Part shown: positions 7,390 through 38,663 of the stretch, in pieces
Layout: every line of letters begins with the position of its first letter
Numbering within the stretch: position 1 is the stretch's first letter
NCBI GenBank assembly: GCA_964349215.1
Contig: CAYGGL010000002.1
Span: 1 to 38,663 of the forward strand
Direction: 5' to 3'
Source: an uncultured Acidimicrobiaceae bacterium
GTDB lineage: Bacteria; Actinomycetota; Acidimicrobiia; Acidimicrobiales; CADCSY01
DNA length: 38,663 nucleotides
The notes under the pieces: generated by a model
What the model was told of the DNA's origin: nothing
What the model saw: only the letters and a program-made list of their open reading frames with translations
The model's database searches: none
Translations under genes and position numbers: made by a program

Positions 7390-7453
7390 CAGGCTTGATT
7401 AACTGGCGCGGCCTGATCAGGTGCCTGACCATTGTGACTACTACCCTTGAGCC

Positions 7454-7954: not shown

Positions 7955-8043
7955 GTCAACCCTTTGCGATATTGACCCTTTGCAATATCGACGTTTTTGT
8001 AAAGGTTGTTTTCACATCCCCACTTGCCTGGTACCGTCGTTAC

Positions 8044-8733
8044 ATGCTTGACGGACGTTGGAAGACCGATATTGAGCAACGACTCCAGCCTGTTGGTCAG
8101 GGTCTTCGAAAAATCGGTCTGACCGCAGACCAATTAACCGCTTTTGGTCTTTTGATGTCAGTCGCAGCATCTGTGGCAATTGCGAATGGGGCTTTGCGAG
8201 GGGGGACGTTGCTGTTGTTGGCGACTGCGTTGCCCGATGCTCTCGATGGTGCTGTAGCAAAAGCATCTGGTACCTCGTCACCTCGAGGTGCTTTCTTCGA
8301 TTCGGTATCAGATCGCATAACAGATGTGGTTTTGTTGGGTGGTGTTTCTTGGTTCCTGACCTCTCGCTATGGTGGGCAGGCAGGCATGGTGGCCTTGGCA
8401 ATCATCGGTGCATCGGCTCTTGTTTCATATCAACGGGCAAAGGCCGAAGCTCTCGGATTTGAAGCCAAAGGTGGGCTCATGGAACGAGCCGAGCGATTGA
8501 TCATGTTGGGGTTTGGCTTGTTGTTTGATTCCCTTTTGGTTCCAGTGCTTTGGGTCATGTTGGCATTGACCTTGCTTACGGCAGCTCAGCGTTTTGTAAA
8601 GGTATGGCGTCAGGCCGGCCAGCCGCTTGTCGCTAAAGAAACTCCTGGCCCACTGATTGTTCGTTGGCGAGGACGTCGAGTCGCTCGCCCAACGGCTAGG
8701 GCTCTTCGCCGCCGCGATCGATTGAATCGCTGA
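8044..8733 (+). CDS. pgsA: CDP-alcohol phosphatidyltransferase; phosphatidylinositol(-phosphate) synthase PgsA1-like
   Basis: CDP-OH transferase motif DALDGAVAKASG...GAFFDSVSDRITD and several TM helices. Position matches the mycobacterial thrS-HIT-pgsA1 block. ATG 8044 is preferred over the ORF-track start 7972, whose extra 24 aa look non-coding. Confidence 0.88.
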   Translation: MLDGRWKTDIEQRLQPVGQGLRKIGLTADQLTAFGLLMSVAASVAIANGALRGGTLLLLATALPDALDGAVAKASGTSSPRGAFFDSVSDRITDVVLLGGVSWFLTSRYGGQAGMVALAIIGASALVSYQRAKAEALGFEAKGGLMERAERLIMLGFGLLFDSLLVPVLWVMLALTLLTAAQRFVKVWRQAGQPLVAKETPGPLIVRWRGRRVARPTARALRRRDRLNR

Positions 8734-8755
8734 GCGCCGACAAGCCGACTAAGTC

Positions 8756-9697
8756 TTGAATTCAATAGACAGCCCACCCCCAAAGCGATCTTCCCTGGGG
8801 GCCCTGGCCCCTTATTACGCCTACAGGGTTGGTGCTGCCATCGCACGATTTTTTCCTGAACCTGTAGTGCTGCGTTTAGCTCAAGGTATCGCTGGGCTTG
8901 TATCTGCACGGGCAGGAAAACCAGGATCCAGAAGACAGATGATCGAGCGTCATCTGCAGCGGGCGCATGATCACAAACTCGATGAGGCCAGTTTGAAAAA
9001 GAGCGTGAAGGAGGCTTATGTCTCATATGCGCGCTATTGGGTTGAGTCGTTTCGTTTGCCAGACAAGTCGCCGGCTGATCTTGATGCGACACTTTCATAT
9101 GAGGGATTGGGAAATCTCGAAAGTGCATTGTCCTTAGGCAAAGGGGTGATTCTCTGTCTTCCTCATTTAGGGGGTTGGGACTACGGGGGAGCGTGGCTGG
9201 CAACTCATGGTTATCCGATGAGTGTCGTCGTTGAGCCAGTAGAGCCTCCCGAATTATTTGAGTGGTTCGCTGATCTGCGCAACAACCTCGACCTCAAGGT
9301 TGTACCTCTTGGTCCCAGTTCGGCGATCTCCGTTTTAAAGACCTTGCGTTCTGGAGGAATCGTTGCGCTATTGAGCGATCGCGACCTGACTCGTGACGGG
9401 CCAGAAGTTTCGTTCTTTGGTGAAATGACCACATTGCCTGCAGGGCCCATAACACTTGGTCTTCGTACTGGGGCGCCGGTATTGCCGACCACGATTTACT
9501 TCAAAGCAGATGGTGGCCATCACGGCGTTATTCGTCCCGCCCTTGAGCTTGAGCGTCGCTGCGACTCTCTTAAAGACGACATTAATCGTTGCACCCAAGT
9601 TCTTGCAGACGAACTCGCACTCCTAATACGTGCGGCCCCAGAGCAGTGGCATCTTTTCCAGCCAAACTGGCCATCGGACCCTGGGTACTCCAATTAG
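8756..9697 (+). CDS. patA: Lipid A biosynthesis-type (LPLAT/HtrB family) acyltransferase; PIM acyltransferase PatA-like
   Basis: HX4D acyltransferase motif (CLPHLGGWDYGG). About 310 aa, directly downstream of pgsA as for Rv2611c. TTG start. Confidence 0.8.
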   Translation: MNSIDSPPPKRSSLGALAPYYAYRVGAAIARFFPEPVVLRLAQGIAGLVSARAGKPGSRRQMIERHLQRAHDHKLDEASLKKSVKEAYVSYARYWVESFRLPDKSPADLDATLSYEGLGNLESALSLGKGVILCLPHLGGWDYGGAWLATHGYPMSVVVEPVEPPELFEWFADLRNNLDLKVVPLGPSSAISVLKTLRSGGIVALLSDRDLTRDGPEVSFFGEMTTLPAGPITLGLRTGAPVLPTTIYFKADGGHHGVIRPALELERRCDSLKDDINRCTQVLADELALLIRAAPEQWHLFQPNWPSDPGYSN

Positions 9698-9715
9698 AAG
9701 ACGAGCCCCTTAGGC

Positions 9716-11095
9716 GTGCCTATTTTTAAGTCAACCGAGCCCGTCGGACCAGTCGAGTCGGTAGGAACTTTGCGCTGGCCTGCGCTTGCGCTTCTCGTCG
9801 CTTTGGCTGCGGCGGTAACGGCACAAGGAGCTTTTTATCCATCCGACCAACGCCTTATAGCAATGCCATTGGCAGTCTCTGTTGTTTTAACCGTACTTAA
9901 GTACCGTTCGTTGGTTATCCCTTGGTCATTATTGGCAACTGGTGGGGCCTTGTCGTTATGGGCACTGTTGCTTGGAGACAAGCTCGGCGACGGAGCGGGC
10001 ATTGTCTATATGATCGCAGCCTTCGTGGCGGTGGTGATGGTAGTGGCTTCAACAGCCAGACAAGAGCGCGTTGCTTTGCTTGGCGCAGTGACTGCCCTCG
10101 GGGTATTTGTTTCACTGAGCGGCATAGTTGGCGTTGCATTCCATATCTATGAGCTGGCAATCCCCGGCCAGGGACTCTGGCGAGCATCAACCACTCTCAC
10201 TTATGCGAATGCGTCGGGCAGCCTATTGGGTCCTATTGCTTTGGTGACTCTAGGTCGCAGTACCTCAGAGACGGGACGATCTCGTGTGTTGTGGATGTCT
10301 GCACTTGTAATTCTCTTTGTGGGCCTTGGGGCGACACTAAGTCGCGGGGGAATCCTCGCCTTTGGATGTAGTTTTCTTATTCTACTTTGGCGTTGTCATT
10401 GGAGAGTCATCTTTTCGATCATGGCTCCCGTGGTGCTAGGTACAGCCGTGGCACTTGTTGGCCTAGGCCCATCTTTCTCAGAAGGAAGTGAAGCTCGACC
10501 TGGTTGGGCGATAGCCGGCTTGGTCGTTGGCTTGCTGGTAGCAGTGGTCGTCGGGAGGTGGTCAAACTCACGAATCTTTGCGGCATTGGGAATTTCTGTG
10601 CTGATAGCGGCATTGTCTCTTGCCAATGGCCTCGGTGGCGAAACCCTGAGTCGTTTGAGCGGTACACGTCTGTCGTTTGAGTCCTCCGATAGAACAGAAA
10701 CCTGGAATGCGGCCCTCGAGACGATCCGCAATAGCCCATGGACGGGAGAAGGCCCTGGCAATGGACGCCTTCGCTACTACCAAGAGAGCGGCAACTATGT
10801 CGAGGCCCGCTTCGTGCACAACGAATATCTTCAGATCGGGGTCGAACTAGGCATCGTGGGAATGTTGTTATTGGCCGCAATCTTCATGACGGTCATCGGT
10901 GGCGTGATGTTCGGTGGTGCGAAAGTCAGTGGAGCTAACAGTTCAGATGTTTGGTATGGAGTTTTAGCCGCGCTTTTGGCACTGGCTATTGGGTCCGGAC
11001 TCGACTTTCTATGGCATATTCCTGCTATCCCGTTAGTTGGTGCGGTATTAATTGGTGCGAGTTGGCAGGAGAAATCCAGGAGGATAAAGAACTGA
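9716..11095 (+). CDS. Polytopic membrane protein with an O-antigen ligase/polymerase (Wzy_C-type) domain
   Basis: 459 aa with 10 or more hydrophobic helices by eye. TLSRGGILAFG and RFVHNEYLQIGVELGIVGMLLL resemble the Wzy_C/WaaL signature region. GTG start. Confidence 0.7.
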   Translation: MPIFKSTEPVGPVESVGTLRWPALALLVALAAAVTAQGAFYPSDQRLIAMPLAVSVVLTVLKYRSLVIPWSLLATGGALSLWALLLGDKLGDGAGIVYMIAAFVAVVMVVASTARQERVALLGAVTALGVFVSLSGIVGVAFHIYELAIPGQGLWRASTTLTYANASGSLLGPIALVTLGRSTSETGRSRVLWMSALVILFVGLGATLSRGGILAFGCSFLILLWRCHWRVIFSIMAPVVLGTAVALVGLGPSFSEGSEARPGWAIAGLVVGLLVAVVVGRWSNSRIFAALGISVLIAALSLANGLGGETLSRLSGTRLSFESSDRTETWNAALETIRNSPWTGEGPGNGRLRYYQESGNYVEARFVHNEYLQIGVELGIVGMLLLAAIFMTVIGGVMFGGAKVSGANSSDVWYGVLAALLALAIGSGLDFLWHIPAIPLVGAVLIGASWQEKSRRIKN

Positions 11096-11186
11096 TACTC
11101 TGAGGGCATTATATGGCGCTGTTTTTCCGCGGCTGGGGTGATCAATTCACTTTGGTTTGAGCGCGATTCTGTCTAAGGAGATTTTT

Positions 11187-11765
11187 ATGACGGGCAATAC
11201 GATCAAGATGAGCGATTCGAGTATGAGGCGTTGGGTCCGTCCAGCTGCCGCAATAGCCGGTGGGGCACTCTTCGCCACTCTCGCAGCAGGGTCTCCTTTG
11301 CTTGCCGGGCATTCGCCTGTGGCTTGCCAATCACCGATTGCCGGGCATTCACCGGTGTCAGACCATTCGCCCGTGGCTTGCCAATCGCCAGTATCAGAGC
11401 AGTCACCGGTTTCTGGGGTATCTCCAGTGAAGCCCAAGATCACGGTTGAGATTGATACTCCAGTTATCAGGTCTGCCAATGGGAAAGTTGTTTATGTTCC
11501 TGTACTCGTTGTTTGTACTGCTGGACCCAATGCCCAGCTAAGTGCTGAGCTGACCCAGAAACTCGCTTTGGTCACCCGCACGGGCAAGGGTACGGCGTCA
11601 GCTCCTTGCGATAACAAGCAACACGTAATTCGTCTTGCAGTTAACGCAACTAGCACGGCCTTTGCTTTAGGCAAGGCATCAGTGAAGGTAACAGGGATCC
11701 AGAACCACCCAAATGGTGTGGCAACTGGCCAAGACACAGAGCAAGTACAGATCCGCTTGCGCTAA
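11187..11765 (+). CDS. Secreted hypothetical protein with an N-terminal SPV-rich tandem repeat linker and a beta-rich C-terminal domain
   Basis: ATG 11187 has AAGGAG 7 nt upstream. Signal-peptide-like RRWVRPAAAIAGGALFATLAAG is followed by repeats GHSPVACQSPIAGHSPVSDHSPVACQSPVSEQSPVSGVSPV. The C-terminal ~100 aa contains two Cys. Confidence 0.7.
   Translation: MTGNTIKMSDSSMRRWVRPAAAIAGGALFATLAAGSPLLAGHSPVACQSPIAGHSPVSDHSPVACQSPVSEQSPVSGVSPVKPKITVEIDTPVIRSANGKVVYVPVLVVCTAGPNAQLSAELTQKLALVTRTGKGTASAPCDNKQHVIRLAVNATSTAFALGKASVKVTGIQNHPNGVATGQDTEQVQIRLR
11304..11429 (+). repeat. In-frame coding tandem repeat, including a 27-nt segment repeated at 54-nt spacing
   Basis: cattcgcctgtggcttgccaatcaccg (11310-11336) versus cattcgcccgtggcttgccaatcgcca (11364-11390), flanked by shorter xSPVxx-coding units. 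Confidence 0.85.
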
Positions 11766-11820
11766 GAGACCTCTGACCTTCTCGTTGGTTTGGGCAAAGC
11801 GCCCGTTCTACGCTGGGTCA

Positions 11821-12090
11821 ATGTGTAGGAACATCACTGAGCTTCGTGGACTTGAGCCTCCGGCAACCAGTCAAGAGATTGAGGCGGCAGCTCGTCAGTA
11901 TCTTCGCAAGATATCTGGCATTGCTCGTCCCAATGAAAAAGTAAGTGAGGCTATGGAGACGGCTGTACATGAAGTCGCCCAAATCACTCAACGGCTTTTG
12001 AGTGATTTGCCGCCTCGTCGTCAGCCTCCCTCAACGCTCCCGCCGTTACGTCGTGATGAGGTTCGTCGTCGCCTGGGGATAGACCAATGA
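11821..12090 (+). CDS. Small conserved protein, DUF2277-like
   Basis: 89 aa starting MCRNITELRGLEPPATSQEIEAAARQYLRKISG, which matches my recollection of the DUF2277 N-terminus. The ORF-track start 11713 overlaps the upstream gene and is rejected. Confidence 0.6.
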   Translation: MCRNITELRGLEPPATSQEIEAAARQYLRKISGIARPNEKVSEAMETAVHEVAQITQRLLSDLPPRRQPPSTLPPLRRDEVRRRLGIDQ

Positions 12091-12122
12091 GGGCTTGGCA
12101 GGGGTAATTCCCCTACGCTCGC

Positions 12123-13193
12123 GTGGTGCACATTGGCCTGATCTGTCCATATAGCCTTACGTTCCCCGGTGGGGTGCAAGGCCAGGTTCTTGGGCTGGCC
12201 CGTGCGCTGCGATTACTTGGAAACGATGTTACGGTACTTGGACCAACAGATGGGCCTCCACCAGATGTGGGAGTTGTGTCGCTTGGTAAGTCGGTTCCGT
12301 TTGCCACCAATGGTTCCATTGCTCCAATAGCGCCAGATCTGCCATGCGCGATTAGGACCATTAAGACACTGCGCAATGAATCATTTGATGTGGTTCATCT
12401 TCACGAACCCTTTGTTCCGGGGCCATGTCTTACGTCGATTTTGATGAAACCAAGTCCTCTCGTTGGCACCTTTCACGCTGCGGGAGCAAAGACTGCATAC
12501 AGCTGGGCAGCTCCAGGACTTCGCAGGCTCGCAAGTCGTCTTGATCTGCGTTGTGCGGTTTCTGATGACGCTCGTGATTTGGCAGAGCAATATCTGGACG
12601 GGACCTATGAGACGGTTTTCAATGGCATCGAGATTGAGCGATTTTCTACTGCAAAACCATGGCCAACTGAAGGACCAACAATTTTGTTTGTGGCCCGTCA
12701 TGAAGAGCGAAAAGGTTTAGCAGTTCTATTAGAGGCAATGGCATCTCTTGGCCCTGATGTTCGCCTCTGGGTGGCAGGCGAGGGGCCAGAGACGCTTCGC
12801 CTGCACACTCAGTATCAAAGTGATGAGCGCATCGAGTGGCTGGGCCGCATAGGCGACAGAGAGCTGACCCAACGCCTGGCAGGAGCAAATGCTTTTTGTG
12901 CCCCATCGCTTCATGGTGAGTCATTTGGGGTCGTTTTACTTGAGGCAATGGCCGCGGGAACTGCGATTGTGGCGAGCGATCTTTCTGGCTACAGACGAGT
13001 TGCTCGAAGCGGCCAAGAGGCTCAACTGGTGGCCCCTGGAGATGCACAAGCGTTGGCATCAGCACTTCGTGAGGTGCTCGAACACCCCGAGCTTGGCGCT
13101 TCGTTGGTGGCGAACGGCAGACAACGAGTCGAAGAATTTTCCATGAACAAGCTGGCTGCTCGTTATCTCGATTTGTATGAATCGATCCTATGA
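12123..13193 (+). CDS. pimA: GT4 glycosyltransferase; phosphatidylinositol alpha-mannosyltransferase PimA-like
   Basis: GT-B/GT4 signature ESFGVVLLEAMAAGTAIVASD (EX7E), N-terminal ICPYS...GGVQ, and membership of the PI/PIM gene block. GTG start. Confidence 0.85.
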   Translation: MVHIGLICPYSLTFPGGVQGQVLGLARALRLLGNDVTVLGPTDGPPPDVGVVSLGKSVPFATNGSIAPIAPDLPCAIRTIKTLRNESFDVVHLHEPFVPGPCLTSILMKPSPLVGTFHAAGAKTAYSWAAPGLRRLASRLDLRCAVSDDARDLAEQYLDGTYETVFNGIEIERFSTAKPWPTEGPTILFVARHEERKGLAVLLEAMASLGPDVRLWVAGEGPETLRLHTQYQSDERIEWLGRIGDRELTQRLAGANAFCAPSLHGESFGVVLLEAMAAGTAIVASDLSGYRRVARSGQEAQLVAPGDAQALASALREVLEHPELGASLVANGRQRVEEFSMNKLAARYLDLYESIL

Positions 13194-28295: not shown

Positions 28296-29405
28296 TTAGG
28301 CACTCATCGTTTCGCCTTCGGCGAGAGCAAACATTTCGTACTCTTCGCCTGTATCGGCCCAATCTTCAAACTGGATCACGCCTAGTTCTTCGAACTTGTG
28401 ACGCAACCAAGCGTCACCTGCATCAAGAAGACCAAGCTTCTTGCAGTTGGGGACAATCTTAGAAAAGAGCATCTTTTGGAATTCGGCACGGTAAGGAGAC
28501 TGCTGGGTGATGGCCATGGCAGCCTTGGGGTCTACTCCCATGCGATCCCAAACCTCTTGTTGCAAGAAACGGTCACGCATACGTACGGCGGCCTCGTAGG
28601 CAAACTCTTGGCGAATGCGCAGCTCAGGGGCGCTCATATTTTCATAGACCTCTTGGAGGCTGAGAACTCCGAAGGCAACGTGGCGAGCTTCGTCACTCAT
28701 GACGTAGCGCAAAAGTTGCTTGAGTAGTGGCTCGGTGGTCATCTGATGCATGAAACCGAACGCAGCAAGAGCTAGGCCTTCGACCATGATCTGCATTCCA
28801 AGATAAGTAATGTCCCAACGCTCATCTTTGATGATGTCGTCGAGCAACATCCCAAGGTGAGCATTGACCGGGTATGAGTTCCCAATCTTGTCAAGGTACT
28901 TGGCAAACACCTCAACGTGGCGAGCTTCGTCCATAGCCTGTGTGGCTGCGTAGTACTTGGCATCGATCCAAGGCACATTCTCAATGATGCGAGCGGTACA
29001 GATAAGAGCACCTTGCTCACCATGCATGAATTGGCTGAGTGCCCAAGCCTGGCTTTCAATGCCCATCTGAAGGAATTCCTTATCGCCCCACTTCTCAAAG
29101 GGGGTACCGGCAAGTTCCATCTGCTGGAGTCCAAAAGACTGCATCTGGAGTGCAGCGAGAGCCTCTTGATCAATCTCGGTTTCCCAAGGTAGATCAGTCT
29201 CACCGTTCCACATGGAGTGCTTTGCTTTCTCATACAGACGGTTCAGCTTGGGGCGTTGGCCTTTGTCGTAGTCCCAAGTGAAGATCGTGTCGTAGTTGCT
29301 GCGTACTTCGTGTACGACTGCATCGACGTCCTTATTGCTGATGGCAAGAATGGCGTCAAGATCATTGACTTCATCTCTACCGATCAGTTCTTTGTTGGTT
29401 GCCAT
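28296..29405 (-). CDS. Ferritin-like diiron-carboxylate protein (R2/AurF-like oxygenase superfamily), function unknown
   Basis: Two E...EXXH half-sites: HGEQGAL...MDEARHVEVF and MVEGLALAAF...SDEARHVAFG. 369 aa with a ~100-aa N-terminal extension. Confidence 0.7.
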   Translation of the reverse strand: MATNKELIGRDEVNDLDAILAISNKDVDAVVHEVRSNYDTIFTWDYDKGQRPKLNRLYEKAKHSMWNGETDLPWETEIDQEALAALQMQSFGLQQMELAGTPFEKWGDKEFLQMGIESQAWALSQFMHGEQGALICTARIIENVPWIDAKYYAATQAMDEARHVEVFAKYLDKIGNSYPVNAHLGMLLDDIIKDERWDITYLGMQIMVEGLALAAFGFMHQMTTEPLLKQLLRYVMSDEARHVAFGVLSLQEVYENMSAPELRIRQEFAYEAAVRMRDRFLQQEVWDRMGVDPKAAMAITQQSPYRAEFQKMLFSKIVPNCKKLGLLDAGDAWLRHKFEELGVIQFEDWADTGEEYEMFALAEGETMSA

Positions 29406-29432
29406 TATTTCTCCCCTATATGGATGTGGTTG

Positions 29433-30101
29433 CTATTTGGGTCTTAGGACTGATGAGGCCCTTGGTATTGAAATCCGTGTATTGAAATCTTGTGCCGGCT
29501 CCCGGGCCAACATGGCGATTCCGGGCATTATGAAGGTTTCGATTAGGCGCTTCACTGAGTCTTCGTCGTATGGGTCAAAGCGCTCTGATGGTGAAGATGC
29601 ATAGGACAATACGATGCGAACGATCCGCTCTGCTGCCTCTAAGGCTTGAGCACGATCAAACCAAGGAGCTAGTTGTGCTGCGGTGAAGATCGTGCCGGGG
29701 CGAACAAGGCCATCCATCGAAGGAGCCAGAATGTGGATAGCTGGGGCATCGGGTTCATATGTCAGCAAGGCCCTAAGTGCAGGATGGCCTATCAAGCGTC
29801 GAAGGGCATGGCCAACGCCAAGGATAAGACGATCTTCGAGTGTGTCTGCTTCTTTAAGTTCGTCACTGAGGGCCGCGAAAAAAGTAGTTGCCTCTGCATC
29901 GGCAACTGCTTGTACCAGGCTTTCTTTTCCTCCTGGGAAAAGGCGGTAAACCGTTGCCCTACTGCAACCGGCCTCACGAGCGACATCTTCAAGGCTGGTT
30001 TTGTTTATTCCCCATCGTTCAATGCAAGTAAGGCAAGCGATCCTAATACGTGTCTCGACCTCTGAGGTCTGAGACGAAACAGCCACTGCCGGAGATGCCA
30101 T
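29433..30101 (-). CDS. TetR/AcrR family transcriptional regulator
   Basis: N-terminal HTH TSLEDVAREAGCSRATVYRLFPGGKESL. 222 aa, lying 27 nt upstream of the diiron gene on the same strand. Confidence 0.9.
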   Translation of the reverse strand: MASPAVAVSSQTSEVETRIRIACLTCIERWGINKTSLEDVAREAGCSRATVYRLFPGGKESLVQAVADAEATTFFAALSDELKEADTLEDRLILGVGHALRRLIGHPALRALLTYEPDAPAIHILAPSMDGLVRPGTIFTAAQLAPWFDRAQALEAAERIVRIVLSYASSPSERFDPYDEDSVKRLIETFIMPGIAMLAREPAQDFNTRISIPRASSVLRPK

Positions 30102-30200: not shown

Positions 30201-30878
30201 ATGCCTTCCGCATTGCCTTGTCCGACAAATTTAAACATTGAGATCCTGGGCTCAGGACCATCGCTCGTATTAACTCATGGAGTTGGGTCGTCCTTGGAGA
30301 CTTGGGGGGCGCAAGTTCCAGTGCTGTCGCAGCATTACACCGTGATCCGTTGGGACCTGAGAGGTCATGGCAATTCGGAGCGACCCGAAGACCCTGATTG
30401 TTACAGCCGAGATCTTGCGCTCAATGATCTACAAAGCATTGTCGAGAGCCATAACAATGGTGAACAGACCGTTCTGGTCGGTCATTCACTTGGCGGGTAC
30501 CTGTCGATGGCACTGGCCATTACACAGCCTCAGTTGGTTAAGTCATTGATTCTCATAGCCACCGGCCCTGGCTTTCGAGACCCACAAGCGAGGGACAAAT
30601 GGAATGCCGGTATGGAGAAGATGGCAGAGTCGTTTGATCTACCGAGTTACGTTACGGGCATTGCCGCTCAGCCTGATGCGTTAGTCATGGATCGATTAGA
30701 AGAGATCAAGGTGCCGACCTTGTTGATAGTCGGCGAGCGTGACAAGCGTTATCACGGAGGCTGTGCATATTTAGAGCGCAAACTTGGAGCAACCTTGGTA
30801 ATGATCGAGGGTGCAGGTCATATGGTTCATGAGACTCATGCACAAGAGGTAAACCAAGCTATCGAAGCATTTTTGTAG
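30201..30878 (+). CDS. Alpha/beta-fold hydrolase
   Basis: HG oxyanion motif (LVLTHGVGSS), nucleophile elbow GHSLGG and C-terminal GAGHMVH. Confidence 0.85.
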   Translation: MPSALPCPTNLNIEILGSGPSLVLTHGVGSSLETWGAQVPVLSQHYTVIRWDLRGHGNSERPEDPDCYSRDLALNDLQSIVESHNNGEQTVLVGHSLGGYLSMALAITQPQLVKSLILIATGPGFRDPQARDKWNAGMEKMAESFDLPSYVTGIAAQPDALVMDRLEEIKVPTLLIVGERDKRYHGGCAYLERKLGATLVMIEGAGHMVHETHAQEVNQAIEAFL

Positions 30879-30938
30879 AGCTGAACTTATTTAGAAGCCC
30901 AACTTATTGGAAGTCGAACATGAAAGAGGGGGAGAGCA

Positions 30939-31715
30939 ATGCGTTTAGATAAAAAAGTGGCATTTATAACGGGTGTTTCTTCTGGCATTGGGGCGGCTTG
31001 TGCCTCGAGGTTTGCAGATGAAGGAGCTGTTGTCATTGGTTTCGATTTGGGTGAAGCTCCCAATGGCCAAGACTCACGGTTGGCAGGTTTTTTTGGGGGA
31101 GACGTTCGCGATGAAAAAGTCGTTGCAAACGCAGTAGAAGCAACAGTGGCCGAAAGAGGTTGCATAGACATCTTGGTAAATGCGGCCGGTGTGGCCGGTG
31201 GAGCGCCTGTGCATGTTCTCGAACAAGAGGAGTGGGATCGCGTTATTGACATCAATCTCAAAGGGACCTTCCTTGTTGCCAAACATGTTCTGAGTGCCGC
31301 AATGGTTAAACAACGTTCTGGCAGCATCATCAATCTGGCAAGCATCGAAGGCGTCGAAGGCATGGATGTGGCGAGCGCATATAACGCCTCAAAGGGCGGT
31401 GTCGTGCTATTGACTCGCCAGATCGCCGTTGATTATGGACGCATTGGGATTCGTTCAAATTGTCTATGCCCGGGATTTATCGAGACCCCAATGACTGCGA
31501 TGTTGCGCGCTCCCGGCCTTGAGTCGATTGCCGACAAGATTGCTGATGCGCATCTGCTTGGGCGTTTTGGAAAACCTGAGGAAGTGGCCGCAGCCGCATC
31601 ATTCCTGGCCTCAGACGATGCCTCGTTCATAACTGGACACGCGTTACTTGTGGATGGAGGACTGACTGCCGGACACCGCTTCGGCTTGGGAGCAATGTTC
31701 GGCTTGGGGACTTGA
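30939..31715 (+). CDS. Short-chain dehydrogenase/reductase (classical SDR, FabG-like)
   Basis: TGVSSGIGAA (TGxxxGxG), NAAG and YNASKGG (YxxxK). Strong RBS GAGGGGGAG. Confidence 0.9.
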   Translation: MRLDKKVAFITGVSSGIGAACASRFADEGAVVIGFDLGEAPNGQDSRLAGFFGGDVRDEKVVANAVEATVAERGCIDILVNAAGVAGGAPVHVLEQEEWDRVIDINLKGTFLVAKHVLSAAMVKQRSGSIINLASIEGVEGMDVASAYNASKGGVVLLTRQIAVDYGRIGIRSNCLCPGFIETPMTAMLRAPGLESIADKIADAHLLGRFGKPEEVAAAASFLASDDASFITGHALLVDGGLTAGHRFGLGAMFGLGT

Positions 31716-32419
31716 GCGCAGACATGTCTAAGGAGAATCCCGAAGTTGATACCCGTACGCCATTGGAACGTCTTGGGGTGCTTGCTACACAACAAGTTGA
31801 GATAACTGAAACCCTGCACCATCTTGAGATGTTTACCCTCGAAGGTCTGCTTACCGTTCTATGGCATGGGGCTCATGATGCCGAGAAAGTTGTAGTCGCA
31901 TGCGGGGGAGCCATGGGTGGTTTGTTGGGTCCGGCGGACGGGCTCTATCACGACCTTGGCGAGGCATTAGTTGAACATGACGTCGCAATGTTGCGCATTG
32001 GATATCGCAAGCCAAATGATTTATCTGCCTGCACCATCGATGTTGCCGCCGCCGCCGAAGTCTCTGCTCGTCAAGGTGGCCAACGCATGGTGACAATGGG
32101 CCATTCATTTGGTGGAGCAATAGCGGTACGTGTGGGCGCATTCTTGCCAGAGGTGGTAGTGGGCGTGGTCACTTTGGCAACTCAGTCAGCAGGTTGTGAG
32201 GTGGCAACACATCTTGCCGGGCGACCATTGTTGATGTTCCATGGCGATGCTGATGAGTTGTTGCCGATACAGACGAGCGAGGTTGTCCGCGACATGGCAG
32301 GTGGCACTGGCGAGCTGGTGATTTTGCCCGGCACGGGACATTTGATGACCCAATCTAACGATGCTTTGCGTGCTCGCCTTCTGGAGTGGATTCCCGAGAC
32401 ACTAGAGTTGGTTGTATGA
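31712..32419 (+). CDS. Alpha/beta-fold hydrolase (dienelactone hydrolase-like)
   Basis: Nucleophile elbow GHSFGG, HGDADELLP (acid) and GTGHLM (His). Start is TTG 31712 (overlaps the SDR stop) or ATG 31724. Confidence 0.75.
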   Translation: MSADMSKENPEVDTRTPLERLGVLATQQVEITETLHHLEMFTLEGLLTVLWHGAHDAEKVVVACGGAMGGLLGPADGLYHDLGEALVEHDVAMLRIGYRKPNDLSACTIDVAAAAEVSARQGGQRMVTMGHSFGGAIAVRVGAFLPEVVVGVVTLATQSAGCEVATHLAGRPLLMFHGDADELLPIQTSEVVRDMAGGTGELVILPGTGHLMTQSNDALRARLLEWIPETLELVV

Positions 32420-33288
32420 GCCAAGAACCACAAGCTGCCCATTTCTACGGACTCGGTGGAGTGACCCTGCGGGCTGACATTTATGGAGACAAAGAGGCTC
32501 ATCCGGTAATTTTGTTACACGGCGGGGGCCAAACCCGTCACGCCTGGGGCTCAACGGCGATGCGTCTGGCAGATGCAGGTTTTCAGGCGCTGACCCTAGA
32601 CCTTAGAGGTCATGGAGAAAGCGACTGGGCGCCAGATTCCGACTATTCAATGGACGCATTCATGGCAGACCTTTTTGTGGTCATGGAAAGCTTCTCGAGC
32701 CCTCCAGCGGTAGCGGGAGCGTCTATGGGTGGAATGACCGCATTGTTGGCTGCTGGTGAAGCTTCAGATGATCAGCCCGCTATGGCGTCGTTGATCCTTG
32801 TTGACGTTGCTCCAACGCTCGAGCCCGAAGGCGTATTGCGCATTTTGGAGTTCATGAACTCCAACCCCGACGGTTTTGAGACCATTGAAGAGGTTGCAGA
32901 TCTGGTCTCCAACTACATGCCGCATCGTCCTCGACCGAAGGACTTGAGTGGGCTGAGTAAGAATCTGCGTCTTGGTGAAGACGGCCGTTATAGGTGGCAT
33001 TGGGATCCTGAATTTCTTTCTCCCAAGCGCCATGCTTCCAATGCCAATCGTCCGACTCGTTTGTTAGAAGCTGCCCAAGCCCTGACGATTCCGACGCTAT
33101 TGGTTCGAGGGCGCATGAGCGATGTTGTCAGCGAAGAGGGCGTGTCTGAGTTCTTGGAAGCAGCGCCTCATGCTCGATTTGTCGACGTTGCAGATGCTGG
33201 TCACATGGTTGCCGGCGACCGCAATGATGTATTCACCAACGCCGTGGTCGACTTCCTTGAAGAAAGCTCGCCGGCTCGCACCTCGTGA
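32416..33288 (+). CDS. Alpha/beta-fold hydrolase
   Basis: ILLHGGGQTRHAW, RGHGESD, the GASMGG nucleophile elbow and DAGHMV. ATG 32416 overlaps the upstream stop (ATGA). The ORF-track start 32386 is rejected. Confidence 0.85.
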   Translation: MSQEPQAAHFYGLGGVTLRADIYGDKEAHPVILLHGGGQTRHAWGSTAMRLADAGFQALTLDLRGHGESDWAPDSDYSMDAFMADLFVVMESFSSPPAVAGASMGGMTALLAAGEASDDQPAMASLILVDVAPTLEPEGVLRILEFMNSNPDGFETIEEVADLVSNYMPHRPRPKDLSGLSKNLRLGEDGRYRWHWDPEFLSPKRHASNANRPTRLLEAAQALTIPTLLVRGRMSDVVSEEGVSEFLEAAPHARFVDVADAGHMVAGDRNDVFTNAVVDFLEESSPARTS

Positions 33289-33306: not shown

Positions 33307-34029
33307 CTATGCCCAAGGCAGCGACTTCCAAGCATCTGCTAGTGAATTGTCGCCAAAGACGTTGAGGCGTTCCTCGGTAATGCGTCTCCAGAGCCATAAG
33401 TAAAGATCACTCGCTGTTCCTTGGAGAGCGAGTGATCCCTTTGCATGTGAGTGCTCGACTTCAATGGTGGAATCAACAATGCTGATTAGCCATTCTCCAG
33501 GCTCGTCAGTTGCATGCAAATGCAGTGTCCCGTCCAGATTGAAGTCTGAATTAGAGGCAAGTGCTTGTGGGATCCAGATGTCGAGGATCTCGTTTATGCC
33601 ATCTACTGCAAGAGCGGCTCCGATCGGCTGAGGTGTCGAGGTTGCCAACTGGGCATCCCAGCGATGCACCGCGACTTCGAGTGCTTGTCGCCGAAACCAA
33701 AAACCAGCGATTTGATCATTGGGAGAAAAATTCCACCTTGGCGCCGTAGGGTCGGTGTTGGTCAAAACATCAATTAGGAAATTGAGTTCAGACAAGTACC
33801 ACTCGGGAGTAATTTCCTCAGGCGCAGGAGGAAAGCCATCTGGGGCAGCCCCATTTTCATCTCCGGCAGCCATTGCGGCCCAACGATGAACTCGACCCAT
33901 ATGGTTCATGAGTTTTGTGACTGTCCATTCGGGACAACTTGGGACCTGTGCAGACATATTTTTTGCACAAGCCTGGGCGAATGCTTCGCCATCATTTCGT
34001 AAAGACGTCAGATACTCGTCGACATTCAT
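33307..34029 (-). CDS. DinB-fold / mycothiol-dependent maleylpyruvate isomerase N-terminal domain protein (TIGR03083-like)
   Basis: The N-terminus ...EAFAQAC....VPSCPEWTVTKLMNHMGRVHRW is typical of actinobacterial MDMPI_N/DinB proteins. About 240 aa. Confidence 0.72.
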   Translation of the reverse strand: MNVDEYLTSLRNDGEAFAQACAKNMSAQVPSCPEWTVTKLMNHMGRVHRWAAMAAGDENGAAPDGFPPAPEEITPEWYLSELNFLIDVLTNTDPTAPRWNFSPNDQIAGFWFRRQALEVAVHRWDAQLATSTPQPIGAALAVDGINEILDIWIPQALASNSDFNLDGTLHLHATDEPGEWLISIVDSTIEVEHSHAKGSLALQGTASDLYLWLWRRITEERLNVFGDNSLADAWKSLPWA

Positions 34030-34064: not shown

Positions 34065-34922
34065 CTAGGATTTATCCACCTGTCCGAGTTCATCCAGTGC
34101 TCTAAGAGGGCCAAATCGATTGATGATATCGCTGAACGAGATGCGTTCTGCTGCGAGATTTAAACCTAAAACAACTAATAGGGCGATCACGCGAACCCAC
34201 GGTGGGCAAGCAATGACCAGGGAAAATCCCATCACTCCTCCCAATACGTTTGCACCCGCATCTCCCAACATGAACCGTTCCTTCAAGTCTCCCGAGATCA
34301 AGATGAGACTGACGGCAAACACAATGGCTGGGCCGACCAGAAATGATCTATATGTCGCAACGGCACCAATCAGTACAAATGCAATCGTTGAAAATTTGAG
34401 TACCCGCCCAGGGGCGCGGTCAAAGAGGTTGGCAAGATTTGTAGTCAACCCAACCAGTGCGCCGTCCCGCATTACATGTAGGGGTGCGAGGGTGCCAGGT
34501 TCAACAAAGGGAGCGCAGACCACGATTGCTATGCACCCGCCCCCGATTAGTTTGAGCCCGCCGGTTGTCATTTGTCCGTGAATCAATGAGTTGAGATGTC
34601 CACGAAAACCTCTTATGTCACTTGTCCCCACAAGGTCATCGATGACGCCTAAAAACCCGAGGACAACGGCTAGCGCGAGCGTCGTGAGTCGATAGCTGTC
34701 CATGCGAATTTCGAGGTCAGCACTTAACGAGGCGACAAGGGCGAAGACGGCCTCTGTGATCAACAAAGCGATTGGGATCACCAAGCCAACTGATGTTGGC
34801 AACGCCTTTCCTCGGTAGTTCTCTCGGGTGAAAATTTCCCGAGCGAAGACTGGGCGCAACATCTTCAGCGCTATCGCTCCGCTGATGAGCCCTCCCATAA
34901 TTGCCAGAGGAATGACGTCCAT
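34065..34922 (-). CDS. Polyprenyl-phosphate sugar-1-phosphate transferase family protein (MraY/WecA, GT4 PF00953-like), short form
   Basis: Polytopic. Motifs NYRGKALPTSVG, VIDDLVG (DD), TNLANLFDRAPG and LGDAGANVLG (MGDxGS-like). The ATG directly abuts the stop of the upstream gene. Confidence 0.7.
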   Translation of the reverse strand: MDVIPLAIMGGLISGAIALKMLRPVFAREIFTRENYRGKALPTSVGLVIPIALLITEAVFALVASLSADLEIRMDSYRLTTLALAVVLGFLGVIDDLVGTSDIRGFRGHLNSLIHGQMTTGGLKLIGGGCIAIVVCAPFVEPGTLAPLHVMRDGALVGLTTNLANLFDRAPGRVLKFSTIAFVLIGAVATYRSFLVGPAIVFAVSLILISGDLKERFMLGDAGANVLGGVMGFSLVIACPPWVRVIALLVVLGLNLAAERISFSDIINRFGPLRALDELGQVDKS

Positions 34923-37835
34923 TTAGTTCTTCACCAGCAGGGTTGGTTCACTGCGGTCCTGTAAAGCCAAAAGTGTGAAGTAAGGACCCAGAAATACAAA
35001 TACCAATGCAGTAACAACTACGCCTGAGTCATTTACTGCAAATCCCAACAGGCCAACTGCAATTGTGCTGAGCACTCCGACTCTTTTTGCCGAGCCCCTC
35101 GGCAAAAGCTCTGACCCCTCGTTGAGATATGCCAGAACATACACAATAAATATGGTGGTGATAGGGACCATCCATGCCCAAAAAGTTGTTCCCAATACGC
35201 GTAAGTTGGTTGCCAATTTGCGTGCGATCGTGGTGCCGGCGGTGTCATTTCCTCCAAATAAATCAGCGGCAAAGCGACCTAAGTGAGTACGCGACTCTGG
35301 GTCTCTGAGTAGGTCGAGCCCCGTCGCTATACCTAAAAATGCAAAGAGTAAGGCCCCCACCATCAACAGGTGACGCACATTTAATCTCCTACCACTCAAG
35401 GAAATGAGTGTCAGTCCATATACGGGAACCAGAGTCAAGATGCCCCCGACATCGTTACCCAGTTTTGGTGCGCCATCCGATATGACCACGATCGCCAATA
35501 GAGCAGCGGCACTCAGGAGTGCTTCTTTACGACGCGGTGCATGTTCGACATGTAGACATGCTGCGATGGCAGCACATGCACCCAGAGTTGCAAATGCAGT
35601 GTTTCCAATTCCGAAGAAACGAGCAGCAGTATGAAGTGAGTAGCCCAACAAACTCGAATACTGCAATCGAGCCCCGGTCGCTAGATCAATAACTATTAGC
35701 GCAGTAGTGATTCCAGTGATCCAAGCCAGGGGACTGAGAGCATGACGATTGGCTCGTAGCGCCAATGCAGTGATGGCAACATTGATCATTATCAGTACCG
35801 CCAACGCTCCATCGCCAAGGCGTGCCACTTCGGGAACTGCTCGAAAGAGGAATGTGGCTAACGGAAAGCCGGCAACAGTTACTACAGCCATGCGCAACAG
35901 GCGTCTTAACCCATCAGCTTTTTGGAGCCGCGACAGGGTCGTGATGGCAAATAGATAGAGCAATGCCTGGATTACGACAAAAGTGATCGTAATTTTTAGA
36001 TAAATGCCTTCACGAAAACCTGCATCACGATCAAGGTTTTGGATATAGCCCATATCTGGCTTATCTGGTCTATATCGCAGTGCATGGCCGATCATTCCGG
36101 TTGGCACTTCGGCCGATACGGCCTCAAGAATGCTTGGAGCAATGTCGGTTACCGTCACGACTCCAAGACGTTTTACAGAAGGAGACTGAGCGTATCCGTG
36201 CTCGATGCCGGGGCCCGTAGTTATGAATGGGGTCAGATGCCAGCCTTGACTCGCGGGCGAAACCGACATGACAAAGATCAGCGAATCCTTAGGAGCGAGG
36301 CTAAGTACGTCACCAAGTAGTTCATCGGTTCGTTCAATTGCCTGCGTTCGATCAGCGCTAGCTGCCTTATCAAGTGACATCGCTGCATACGCCGTGGCTC
36401 GGTCAATGTCGCCTGGGTCGATAGCAATCACGTCAGCAGTTTGAAGCGCAACTTTGAAAGAGTCGATGACTTCGTCTTTGTCGAAGCGCACGCCAAAGGG
36501 CGCTTGAGGGTCGGGTTTCAACAAACCTGCGTCAACACGACCAGTATCTACACTTGCTCTTCTATCAACCAACGAGATTCCGATTGGACGATTGACTTTT
36601 TTATCAATATCGCCTGTGCCCAAGTCGCCATTTCCAATCACGGCAGAGGTGACACCAGCGACGTTTAATGCGTCGCCCAGTGCTCCCGGCTCGCTGCTTA
36701 GATGCTTACCTGTTGATTGGCGCACTGTGGTTGGATAACCAATTACTACGACTTGTCCATCAGTTGAGCGACCGGTTCTGCGTTGGGCGACTTCTATCGC
36801 AGTGCCGCCTTCAACCAATTCATCGGCCTGGTATGCAGATGCACCGGCAATGGCATCAGCACGCACACGGGTGCCCGCATTGAGCGACGCGTATCCCTCA
36901 GTAGTAGAGGGTCTTCCAGACATGGTTCGTACGCTCATGGCCGCAACCGCACCTCGGTTGAGAAGCCCATCGATATTTGGTGTGTTTCCTTGTTGCAGAT
37001 CTTCAAAACTCAAACGCGGCACTCCAAAGATGATCACCTTCGAAGGCTTGGTTGAAAGTGCATTGCTAGAGGGTTCCCATCTGCCACCTGACCACAACAT
37101 CCACACCATAAATACAACAGAGGTAATGGCAATGATGGCCATTCTCAAACGTTGGCTGGTTAGGCGAACCCAAAGTGCTCGCAAGATGTCGAGTCCTTGG
37201 CGGCCACGATGACGAAAGCCTGCAAATTTCCGCCCGGTGTGGCGATGATCCATGTTGACATCGAGCTCAACAACCCTGGCACCACTACGTACGGCATCAA
37301 TGGTCAGGGCTGTTTCCAGTCCGAAGCGCGGCGCTAATTCAATAGAGCGAAGTAGCTCACCACGTATTGCTCGTTGACCAGATAAGGGAGCCTTTGCCAC
37401 AAATCCACAGCCACGTTTGATACCCGCAGCCGAAAGATTTCTGACCATTCCAAAGCCGCCCTTTGACCCGGCAGAAGGCAACACCCCAACGGTCATATCC
37501 GCTGTGTTTTCAAGGACTGGCCCAAGCAATGCCTCTGCGGCGCCGCCAGATTGGCCAACGTCGGCATCAATCATCAGATAGACGCTTGCATGAGGGGCAG
37601 CTTTAATACCTGCCATTACAGCGCCGGCCTTACCCAGGTTGCGGGGAAGCTTTAATACATCAGCACCTGCTTCAACGGCGCGCTCCGACGTTGCATCGCT
37701 TGAGCCGTCGTCAATGACGAGCACGCGCTCTACTTCGTTGATTGAGCGAGCCGCCCTCACCGTTTCGGTGATCGAATCGGCCGAATCTTTCGCCGGAATC
37801 AAAACGACAACACCAGTCGCTGCCAAATTTGTCAA
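34923..37835 (-). CDS. Multidomain membrane protein: N-terminal GT-A (family 2/81-like) glycosyltransferase, one TM helix, alkaline-phosphatase-superfamily-like ectodomain, and a C-terminal ~10-TM domain
   Basis: GT-A: VVVLIPAKDSADSI, VIDDGSSD, LMIDADV (DXD) and RFGLETALTID. Ectodomain: NTPNIDGLLNRGA, GRPSTTEGYASLNAG and VTVTDIAPSILEAV..VPTGMIGHAL. TTG 37835 has AGGAGG 7 nt upstream and overlaps the murJ stop. The ORF-track start 38024 lies inside murJ. Confidence 0.75.
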   Translation of the reverse strand: MTNLAATGVVVLIPAKDSADSITETVRAARSINEVERVLVIDDGSSDATSERAVEAGADVLKLPRNLGKAGAVMAGIKAAPHASVYLMIDADVGQSGGAAEALLGPVLENTADMTVGVLPSAGSKGGFGMVRNLSAAGIKRGCGFVAKAPLSGQRAIRGELLRSIELAPRFGLETALTIDAVRSGARVVELDVNMDHRHTGRKFAGFRHRGRQGLDILRALWVRLTSQRLRMAIIAITSVVFMVWMLWSGGRWEPSSNALSTKPSKVIIFGVPRLSFEDLQQGNTPNIDGLLNRGAVAAMSVRTMSGRPSTTEGYASLNAGTRVRADAIAGASAYQADELVEGGTAIEVAQRRTGRSTDGQVVVIGYPTTVRQSTGKHLSSEPGALGDALNVAGVTSAVIGNGDLGTGDIDKKVNRPIGISLVDRRASVDTGRVDAGLLKPDPQAPFGVRFDKDEVIDSFKVALQTADVIAIDPGDIDRATAYAAMSLDKAASADRTQAIERTDELLGDVLSLAPKDSLIFVMSVSPASQGWHLTPFITTGPGIEHGYAQSPSVKRLGVVTVTDIAPSILEAVSAEVPTGMIGHALRYRPDKPDMGYIQNLDRDAGFREGIYLKITITFVVIQALLYLFAITTLSRLQKADGLRRLLRMAVVTVAGFPLATFLFRAVPEVARLGDGALAVLIMINVAITALALRANRHALSPLAWITGITTALIVIDLATGARLQYSSLLGYSLHTAARFFGIGNTAFATLGACAAIAACLHVEHAPRRKEALLSAAALLAIVVISDGAPKLGNDVGGILTLVPVYGLTLISLSGRRLNVRHLLMVGALLFAFLGIATGLDLLRDPESRTHLGRFAADLFGGNDTAGTTIARKLATNLRVLGTTFWAWMVPITTIFIVYVLAYLNEGSELLPRGSAKRVGVLSTIAVGLLGFAVNDSGVVVTALVFVFLGPYFTLLALQDRSEPTLLVKN

Positions 37836-38663
37836 ACGGTTGCCTCCTGGGGCTTTTGCCTGCGCACCTCGGGAGAACCAAGAGCGAATTGAATGCCAGC
37901 GTAGATCGCCACTCCGACAAAACCTGCCATTGCAACTGTGAATGCTGCACCAAAGCGACCTTCGAGCGAAATAGTTTCCGCCAGGTACCAGACGGCCAAT
38001 CCTGCTACTGCCGATGATCCACATGCACGGACAATTGGGAGGGCAACGTCAAGAGAATGGGGAAGTTTTTTGGCAATGACCATCATGAGCACGATTGCTC
38101 CTGCGAGTTGGACAACAGAGTGTGCGACGCCGAGTGATGCAACCTGATTAATGCCATCTGTGGAGCTCGACCACCACAACATAAGAGCCGAACCAATAAT
38201 TGCCATGGCCATATTTATCAACGTTGGACTACGTGTGTCTTCTGCTGCATAGGACGCTCTGGTGAGAAGCTGAAAGACCGAGTAGCCAAAAAGTCCAAAG
38301 GCATAACCTGCCAATGTCCTAGAAACAAGTTCGGATTGCGCGGAAAGTTCTCCGAGTGAAACCGCATTGAGGATTGGATTGGAAAGCACAGCGAGAAATA
38401 TCGAAGTGGGGAGAATAAAAAAACTGAGTTGGCGAATTCCGCTGCCAAGGTGTTGCCCAAATGCCGTCTGGTCGTTGCGATGAATGTCGCCAGACAGCTG
38501 AGGGAAAAGTGTTGTGAGAATTGGGTTTCCTACTAAAGCATATGGGAACAAAAAAAACGTAAAAGCTATTTGGTAGGCGACAACCCCGCCTTCAATTCGA
38601 TTGGCAAGGACTAATGTAACTCCCAGAAGCACCTGCGTAAGGCCTAGATAACTGGCCGCCCAG
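37832..38663 (-). CDS. murJ: Lipid II/MOP-family flippase MurJ (MviN), C-terminal part; 5' end lies outside the window
   Basis: The frame is open to the window edge (WAASYLGLTQ precedes the ORF-track start). ANRIEGGVVAYQIAFTFFLFPYALVGNPILTTLFPQLS is the MurJ signature region, followed by several further TM helices. It ends without a pseudokinase extension. Confidence 0.88.
   Translation of the reverse strand, partial: WAASYLGLTQVLLGVTLVLANRIEGGVVAYQIAFTFFLFPYALVGNPILTTLFPQLSGDIHRNDQTAFGQHLGSGIRQLSFFILPTSIFLAVLSNPILNAVSLGELSAQSELVSRTLAGYAFGLFGYSVFQLLTRASYAAEDTRSPTLINMAMAIIGSALMLWWSSSTDGINQVASLGVAHSVVQLAGAIVLMMVIAKKLPHSLDVALPIVRACGSSAVAGLAVWYLAETISLEGRFGAAFTVAMAGFVGVAIYAGIQFALGSPEVRRQKPQEATV

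Follow-up and report, generated by a model that had tools for sequence, protein, structure and literature searches.

A conserved gene module beside steA-steB in Actinomycetota as a candidate lipid-linked envelope glycan pathway

Do three genes that follow one another without intergenic DNA encode an envelope pathway of their own? The question is raised by the window, by which we mean the whole 38,663-nt stretch analysed here, from an uncultured Acidimicrobiaceae bacterium. Near its right-hand end a reading of the minus strand gives a murJ-like gene, a gene for a 970-residue fusion of a GT-A glycosyltransferase (GT) domain with an ectodomain and a transmembrane (TM) domain, and a gene for a 285-residue PNPT-like protein. 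An earlier note, made from the letters alone, had seen in this trio a unit that could build a lipid-linked polymer of the cell envelope. The trio was read here as this lineage's copy of a widespread actinobacterial module that would serve a dedicated lipid-linked envelope glycan pathway, separate from lipid II, and we give that reading about an even chance. The ectodomain and the TM part of the fusion are together called EctoTM, and loci and proteins of other genomes carry our labels (L and P).

Co-conservation of the trio downstream of steA-steB

A scan of species-representative genomes for relatives of the PNPT-like protein returned at least 560 candidate stretches, of which the best 80 were inspected. 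Homologues of this protein and of the fusion came mostly from metagenome-assembled genomes (MAGs) of Acidimicrobiales, which together with the mycothiol-type MDMPI gene assigns the window to Actinomycetota and probably to Acidimicrobiia. The trio was co-conserved across Acidimicrobiia, Coriobacteriia and several Actinomycetes. Reference proteins mapped on the loci gave a near-constant order, tlyA-ppnK-recN-steA-mctB(steB)-[murJ-like]-(GT)-[EctoTM]-[PNPT-like]-(PMT_2, opposite strand)-pyrG-nudix. Where both flanks extended for at least 7 kb (41 loci), mctB was found within 7 kb in 40, steA in 36, MurJ and pyrG in 34 each and EctoTM in 29; the SteA protein of L004 scored 456.7 bits against NF040608. 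The module lay immediately downstream of steA-steB in nearly all relatives, often with overlapping stop and start codons, and such overlapping junctions recurred between orthologues in distant genomes (L004, L077, L088, L091). A lack of co-conservation in related genomes had been named in advance as the finding that would speak against a functional unit; what was found is the opposite, and the natural fusions described below likewise bear out the unit proposed in the earlier note.

The window differs from this arrangement. In L091, where the fused form is kept at 49% identity, the order is steA-mctB-murJ-fusion-PNPT-like...pyrG-nudix-ald-xerD with overlapping junctions. In the window organism the trio faces away from pyrG-nudix-ald-xerD, and the genes from tlyA through mctB, steA/steB included, were found neither in the window nor in the next 10 kb of this organism's contig. 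We read the window arrangement as a derived, lineage-specific inversion in which the trio moved as one block, a sign that its genes are kept together. The earlier observation that no mur, fts or div genes flank this murJ therefore holds for the window lineage and fails elsewhere, where mctB and steA adjoin the module at the frequencies given above; the missing division genes are explained by the rearrangement and are no proof of independence from division. No dcw or mur genes were found in the window or in the surveyed flanks.

The order within the interval was less constant than its membership. The PNPT-like gene lay outside the steB-pyrG interval, before steA, in 4 of 50 complete intervals, and in six loci (L003, L004, L027, L029, L052 and L074, Microthrixaceae among them) it was found between recN and steA rather than after the EctoTM gene; its position varies and its membership is kept. 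A shorter form, steA-steB-PNPT-like-MurJ-like-(GT4)-pyrG, was found in the Actinomycetes Kribbella, Cellulosimicrobium, Luteimicrobium and Actinoallomurus, with the GT4 gene present in most and not seen in Cellulosimicrobium L075. Mycobacterium tuberculosis, judging from its gene order, presumably has no such module. One contig labelled 'MAG: Bifidobacterium breve' (L011) carries an Acidimicrobiia-like mctB-PNPT-like-PMT_2-pyrG locus whose protein is 39% identical to that of the window; the public record is probably misbinned or mislabelled.

The accessory GT is interchangeable in kind. When the 50 steB-to-pyrG intervals were sorted by accessory GT, 22 had only a PMT_2 (GT-C) protein, 13 only a GT4 and seven only a GT2, while eight had none and not one had two kinds. 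GT4 and GT2 share a single slot, between murJ and the EctoTM gene.

The products of neighbouring genes are also joined in single proteins. Both JGI and Logan assemblies contain a MurJ-EctoTM-GT2-EctoTM fusion of 2394 aa, which occupies a canonical locus (L088), a MurJ-GT2-EctoTM fusion also exists, and EctoTM-GT2-EctoTM is represented by six proteins. A GT2-EctoTM-PNPT triple fusion (P0248) was discounted as a single case on a contig (L089) with many fragmented genes of the kind typical of frameshift errors. Some Acidimicrobiia have two EctoTM paralogues (L036, L046, L054, L058, L059, L069, L088; P0241-P0247), either as separate genes flanking the PNPT-like gene or within single open reading frames (ORFs) of 1760-2394 aa, with MurJ added in L088.

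A candidate pathway and the enzymes at its two ends

The pathway that we propose has four steps. At the cytoplasmic face the PNPT-like enzyme would load polyprenyl phosphate with a sugar-1-phosphate taken from a nucleotide sugar, and the membrane-tethered GT-A domain would add a further sugar, a task that in other lineages may fall to the GT4 in the same slot or to an extracytoplasmic GT-C. The MurJ-family protein would then flip the lipid-linked saccharide, and EctoTM may bind the flipped, pyrophosphate-linked intermediate outside and transfer or polymerise it onto an envelope acceptor.

For the first step, the 285-residue protein had been assigned to the MraY/WecA family. No Pfam or NCBIfam model matched it even at E ≤ 10, PF00953 included, and phmmer against the PDB also gave no match; of the 120 homologues listed, only four had a precomputed PF00953 match. 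The fold and the catalytic residues tell of a closer kinship. The AlphaFold (AF2) model has a pLDDT of 92.2 and a pTM of 0.91, and the top 34 PDB matches in Foldseek were all DPAGT1 or MraY structures, with probability 1.0 and query-normalised TM-scores of 0.52-0.63. The family profile matched E. coli MraY at E=7.8e-4 with the DD and GDxG motifs aligned. D95, D96, N162, N165, D168 and D221 were invariant in 69 PNPT-like sequences, and the catalytic motifs of PNPT enzymes were present: DD after TM3, NxxNxxD at the end of TM5 and GD before TM8. The family assignment of the earlier note thus stands for the fold and the invariant Asp motifs and falls for PF00953 membership. According to the model, the protein is a minimal member of the PNPT superfamily, and by the Pfam test it is not a PF00953 member.

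The minimal character lies in what follows the catalytic core. In MraY or WecA, substrate specificity is set by TM10 and by the loop-E His motif and aminosugar-recognition region. The modelled protein has nine TM helices and ends after TM9 with two short cytoplasmic helices; in model and alignment it has no TM10, no loop-E His motif and no conserved C-terminal His, and the residues conserved in its C-terminal part are L254, N255, E259, S262, F263, D277 and G280. The protein is probably active. Queried with a Kribbella member, the family yielded over 5,000 clusters (90% identity), and the RefSeq entries listed for orthologues from cultured genera are named 'hypothetical protein'.

The enzyme proposed for the last step is less familiar. 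The AF2 model and hydropathy gave an ectodomain of mixed alpha/beta structure (residues ~254-610) and a TM part (~611-970) of 11 hydrophobic helices with an intracellular C-terminus. Residues 246-970 of the fusion matched no Pfam or NCBIfam model even at E ≤ 10. In a comparison of the EctoTM family profile with the PDB, the best match was iPGM (2ify, E=2e-4), with weak matches to sulfatase and LtaS; they cover only ~90 residues around a conserved C-terminal D(V/I)APT(I/L)L region. Pfam matches of the ectodomain, to SGSH_C, Sulfatase, Metalloenzyme and Phosphodiest, were all sub-threshold. The label of an alkaline-phosphatase (AlkP)-like domain given in the earlier note thus keeps weak sequence support, from the short iPGM match and the sub-threshold families.

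The proposed activity of this domain fared worse. In the ectodomain alignment there was no conserved metal-binding Asp, no conserved Ser/Thr nucleophile, no D-H motif and no invariant His. At the positions where this fold carries such residues, the place of the metal-binding Asp after strand 1 is taken by GxP, the nucleophile position is variable and the D-H motif is replaced by S/P-rich sequence. We read the ectodomain as an AlkP-like fold with an apparently dead active site, and phosphotransfer by it seems unlikely. An ectodomain with no conserved catalytic residues leaves the LtaS/EptA/OpgB-type phosphotransfer role that had been suggested unsupported, and the domain order is also reversed. 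LtaS, EptA and OpgB have the TM bundle first, whereas the order in the fusion is one TM helix, the ectodomain and then 11 TM helices. This order resembles that of PIGN-type proteins, which have a TM helix, an AlkP-like lumenal domain and a polytopic C-terminal domain. What the ectodomain shares with LtaS, EptA, OpgB and PIGN/Mcd4 is the weak profile similarity and the fold-typical beta-alpha order at its start; what it does not share is the set of catalytic residues.

The TM domain had no sequence match in Pfam, NCBIfam or the PDB, and hhalign of the EctoTM profile against the Wzy_C protein of the window and against a PMT_2 GT-C gave a probability of 0.2, with no detectable relation. In the topology model the invariant polar residues of the TM domain (D717, R739, N745, D795, D841, H851 and R872) are predicted to face outward. 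WaaL- and Wzy-type enzymes have conserved Arg, His and Asp residues on that side too, and those of the 11-helix domain may be placed analogously. At 50% identity the EctoTM family, which has no Pfam model, comprises 5107 clusters when E ≤ 1e-3 is allowed and 2264 when E ≤ 1e-30 is required. In L004 a standalone protein of 757 aa corresponds by homology to residues 266-964 of the fusion (32% identity, E=3e-92), and the fusion to GT2 therefore arose within one clade.

The flippase, the glycosyltransferase and the alternative readings

The 276-residue MurJ fragment in the window matched PF03023 (E=4.9e-27, 95.1 bits, threshold 27.4), which confirms the earlier label, and it is 94.6% identical to a full-length orthologue of 511 aa (L001). 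In the first alternative to our reading, murJ encodes the organism's housekeeping lipid II flippase and there is no separate glycoconjugate; the fusion and the PNPT-like protein would be accessories of peptidoglycan synthesis that might, for example, modify or regulate lipid II or the building of the septal wall. We consider this alternative unlikely, with evidence on both sides. The family likeness is close: HMMER aligned the MurJ over 390 residues with solved lipid II flippases (E=1.7e-22), and the L001 orthologue reached 229.9 bits, just under the TIGR01695 equivalog cut-off of 235.55. Other members fell further below it, L004 at 189.6 and the Kribbella type at just 159.5 bits. Thirty-nine locus-type MurJ-like proteins, five of them from the window's own lineage, were aligned, and the HMMER alignment is concordant with the result. 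R18 and R24 (E. coli numbering) were kept in all 39; the R270 position was occupied by T, V, A, Q or F and never by R, and F or Y stood at the R52 position and E at the R53 position, again in 39 of 39. R18, R24 and R270/R274 are charges implicated in substrate binding or transport by the MurJ proteins of E. coli and Burkholderia, and in streptococcal YtgP only three charged residues are similarly placed and vital (PMC4790310). The missing R270 and R52 equivalents favour, short of proof, a substrate other than lipid II.

Gene context also cuts both ways. The ancestral site directly follows the cell-separation genes steA-steB, and SteAB regulates the peptidoglycan hydrolase RipA/RipC (PMC6705760, PMC12977500), which would suit a housekeeping role in wall synthesis, as would the retention of the PNPT-like/MurJ pair in the genome-streamlined Nanopelagicales (L082). 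Several loci have the module without murJ, and in those genomes a MurJ must therefore exist elsewhere; moreover, a PNPT initiator and a cytoplasmic GT beside a flippase are the standard signature of a separate lipid-linked glycan.

The second alternative arises from the GT-A domain, which carries the only Pfam match of the fusion, to PF00535 (residues 11-130, E=4.5e-15, 56.4 bits, threshold 23.3), as the earlier GT2 label had implied. Its DDxS (D42, D43) and DxD (D90, D92) motifs were invariant in the homologue alignment. The AF2 model of the fusion has a pLDDT of 90.7 and a pTM of 0.87; Foldseek with the whole 970-aa model retrieved GpgS (5jt0, E=5e-10) together with ArnC, DPMS and GtrB structures, and the 50 matches listed were all to GT-A structures. 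The best NCBIfam matches were AglJ, GpgS and PpgS, all far below their cut-offs, and scores for the polyprenyl-phosphate glycosyl synthase equivalogs stayed under the required level (AglJ 71.6 against 325, PpgS 45.9 against 370, ArnC 21.7 against 529). DSSP on the AF2 model placed a basic interface helix at residues 204-225 and a TM helix at 228-253, in agreement with hydropathy and charge counts, and the TM helix is predicted to carry the chain to the outside.

These relatives and this tether recall a polyprenyl-monophosphate route that follows the logic of ArnC/ArnT, GtrB/GtrA/Gtr or PpgS/Rv3779. The GT-A domain would make a polyprenyl-P-sugar, MurJ or the 11-helix domain would flip it, and EctoTM or PMT_2 would pass this one sugar on to a wall polymer, a lipoglycan or a protein already in place, with the PNPT-like protein serving another step or the recycling of the carrier. 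The synthase/GT-C pairs, Ppm1/Pmt and PpgS(Rv3631)/Rv3779 included, are indeed the closest GT-A group (with GpgS), the DPMS/GtrB class shows the same interface and TM helices after GT-A, PMT_2, a GT-C that uses polyprenyl-P-sugars, occurs in many related loci (22 of the 50), and the phosphatidylinositol-mannoside (PIM)-type locus of the window makes lipoglycan acceptors plausible. We nevertheless regard the route as unlikely. GT2 and PMT_2 never occur together in a locus, whereas an ArnC/ArnT-type pair needs both, and the GT2 can be replaced in its slot by GT4, a class known for glycan extension and not for polyprenyl-P-sugar synthesis. The equivalog cut-offs are widely missed, the GT-A domain is fused to an unrelated 720-aa protein, and the scheme leaves without a role the PNPT-like protein, which, by selection, is present in all surveyed loci.

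That the adjacency is historical only, with unrelated envelope genes held in a conserved and rarely rearranged recN-pyrG region where tight junctions are ordinary, is disfavoured as very improbable: about half of the same-strand junctions in the genome do overlap or abut, and the order tlyA-ppnK-recN...pyrG-nudix-xerD is conserved across the phylum without shared function, but MurJ, GT2 and EctoTM are recurrently fused in frame, the trio moved as one block when its flanks were rearranged, membership stays constant while the order inside the interval varies, and three kinds of GT are mutually exclusive in one slot.

A dedicated glycan pathway has its own difficulties, which keep our confidence in it divided. 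Loci entered the sample by way of their PNPT-like protein, and inspection covered only the best 80 of at least 560. The module is not invariant, since murJ is absent from some loci (L006, L016 and L020, for example) and Actinomycetes such as Kribbella have no EctoTM protein. The MurJ of the window lineage falls only 6 bits short of the TIGR01695 cut-off, and Acidimicrobiia might use it as their housekeeping flippase for lipid II. The PNPT-like protein, as modelled, may be inactive or may use an unexpected donor, given that it has no loop-E sugar-recognition region. The best match of the GT-A domain is the soluble GpgS and not an extender of lipid-linked glycans. Finally, no catalytic site can be recognised in the ectodomain and the TM domain has no known counterpart, so that the outer-face transfer is a step that we purely infer.

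If the trio does form a dedicated glycan pathway, that glycan probably has its role at the septum or when cells separate, because the ancestral module is transcribed right after steA-steB. We put forward with considerable doubt a broader proposal. Much of Actinomycetota would possess a second lipid II-like pathway, with a minimal MraY-like enzyme, one GT and an R270-less MurJ paralogue, co-transcribed with SteAB and yielding a product needed for septal envelope maturation or cell separation; EctoTM would then be a new class of outer-face glycan transferase or polymerase that uses a dead AlkP fold as its substrate-binding module.

Set beside known systems, the logic of the module is standard for envelope glycans; the particular gene set is undescribed, and for two of its four parts there is no curated family. 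The lipid II pathway (MraY, MurG, MurJ) likewise has a PNPT-fold initiator with DD, NxxNxxD and GD motifs, one cytoplasmic GT (GT4, a GT-B, in many of our loci), a MurJ-family flippase and a link to division genes. The module differs in each part: its initiator has 285 aa and nine TM helices, without TM10, the loop-E His motif or a PF00953 match; its GT is GT2, GT4 or GT-C and not GT28; its MurJ has no equivalents of R52 and R270; and it adds an EctoTM of ~720 aa and sits by steAB and pyrG. Pathways that are initiated by WecA/TagO and flipped by Wzx (enterobacterial common antigen, O-antigen, the linkage units of wall polymers, with WaaL, Wzy or LCP acting outside) also begin on polyprenyl phosphate, extend, use a MOP flippase and finish outside. 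Here the flippase is of the MurJ type and not the Wzx type, EctoTM has no similarity to Wzy_C, PMT_2 or the membrane enzymes in the PDB, and the locus showed no genes for LCP, Wzz or the synthesis of nucleotide sugars. The SteA-SteB (MctB) system is the upstream neighbour in relatives and is absent at the window locus.

The statement in the earlier note that no characterised system has this composition was upheld: no characterised homologue was found, and searches of the literature on SteA/SteB, Acidimicrobiia MurJ, actinobacterial MraY-like proteins and MurJ paralogues turned up no description of the module. The SteAB literature that was searched makes no mention of MurJ or of a glycosyltransferase.

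Both uncurated families are large, with more than 5,000 clusters each at the identity levels given above. The fixed site after steA-steB, recently characterised as regulating the septal hydrolase RipA/RipC, hints that a lipid-linked glycan is connected with actinobacterial cell separation, which can be tested, and cultured carriers of the simpler form (Kribbella, Cellulosimicrobium, Actinoallomurus, Sphaerisporangium) make genetics feasible. A natural minimal PNPT enzyme and an R270-less MurJ would also be useful for the study of substrate choice in families that are antibiotic targets.

Gene junctions and other genes of the window

Table 1. Features of the trio and of the adjacent gene in the window (positions of the 38,663-nt stretch)
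Feature	Position	Strand	Basis
murJ-like gene, 3' part (276 codons), continuing past the window end	37832..38663	minus	PF03023
Translational-coupling junction murJ/fusion	37832..37848	minus	Sequence reading; concordant gene calls on 6 contigs
Fusion aa 1-203, cytoplasmic GT-A (family 2) glycosyltransferase domain	37227..37835	minus	PF00535, DDxS/DxD, Foldseek
Fusion aa 204-253, basic amphipathic interface helix and one TM helix	37077..37226	minus	DSSP on AF2 model, hydropathy, charge counts
Fusion aa 254-610, extracytoplasmic AlkP-superfamily-like domain, apparently degenerate active site	36006..37076	minus	Family profile, sub-threshold Pfam, alignment
Fusion aa 611-970, 11-helix membrane domain without described family	34926..36005	minus	Helices, hydropathy, invariant columns
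285-aa minimal PNPT protein, candidate polyprenyl-phosphate sugar-1-phosphate transferase	34065..34922	minus	AF2 fold, profile, invariant Asp motifs
MDMPI/DinB-fold gene (mycothiol-dependent enzyme family)	33307..34029	minus	PF11716, PF07398, TIGR03083

The junctions described in the earlier note were all found in the sequence (Table 1). The murJ stop TGA (37834-37832) overlaps the fusion start TTG (37835-37833) as TTGA, and an AGGAGG at 37848-37843 precedes this start by a 7-nt spacer, caaccgt. The fusion stop TAA (34925-34923) directly abuts the ATG (34922-34920) of the 285-aa gene, and the MDMPI/DinB gene starts 35 nt past the stop of the latter. The TTG start is sound: independent gene calls on 6 contigs gave the same 970-aa product (P0121, 100% identity over the 721 aa queried), and the N-termini of homologues begin just upstream of the first GT-A strand, in agreement with it. 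A longer, 1033-aa reading of the ORF from an ATG at 38024 would overlap murJ by 190 nt, had no support from homologues and was rejected.

Such packing is real yet ordinary for this genome. On the same organism's contig (L085), the gap was 0 nt or less at 9 of 17 same-strand junctions, or 7 of 15 when the two trio junctions are left out. In the window, with a GC content of ~52%, a promoter and terminator scan gave fewer sites than shuffled sequence and none between the trio genes; a weak hairpin resembling a terminator, which lies shortly after the start of the fusion gene (37825-37805), was dismissed. Just past the right end of the window (L085 8464-8469), pyrG and murJ diverge from called starts only 4 nt apart; the murJ promoter would thus have to be located within pyrG, unless one of the two starts has been placed too far upstream.

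The MDMPI/DinB gene was considered as a further member of the module and rejected; it is adjacent only in the window's lineage (L001, L002, L085, L086) and absent from all other surveyed loci.

Elsewhere in the window, a plus-strand stretch (4919-13193) carries thrS, a HIT gene, a 166-aa ORF with no Pfam match, a CDP-alcohol phosphatidyltransferase gene (7972-8733), a Lip_A_acyltrans acyltransferase gene (8756-9697), the gene of the 459-aa Wzy_C/O-antigen-ligase-like protein (9716-11095), a 202-aa ORF and a GT4 gene (12123-13193), followed downstream by LemA, M48, DUF3048, pdxS, pdxT, yebC and ruvCAB. We take this stretch to mirror the mycobacterial PIM locus, thrS-pgsA1-acyltransferase-pimA...ruvCAB, with the Wzy_C protein inserted. 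On the minus strand at 28296-30101, a gene labelled by Pfam as an AurF-family di-iron oxygenase (369 aa) lies beside a TetR regulator, and these genes are followed at 30201-33288 by a cluster with alpha/beta-hydrolase and SDR labels.

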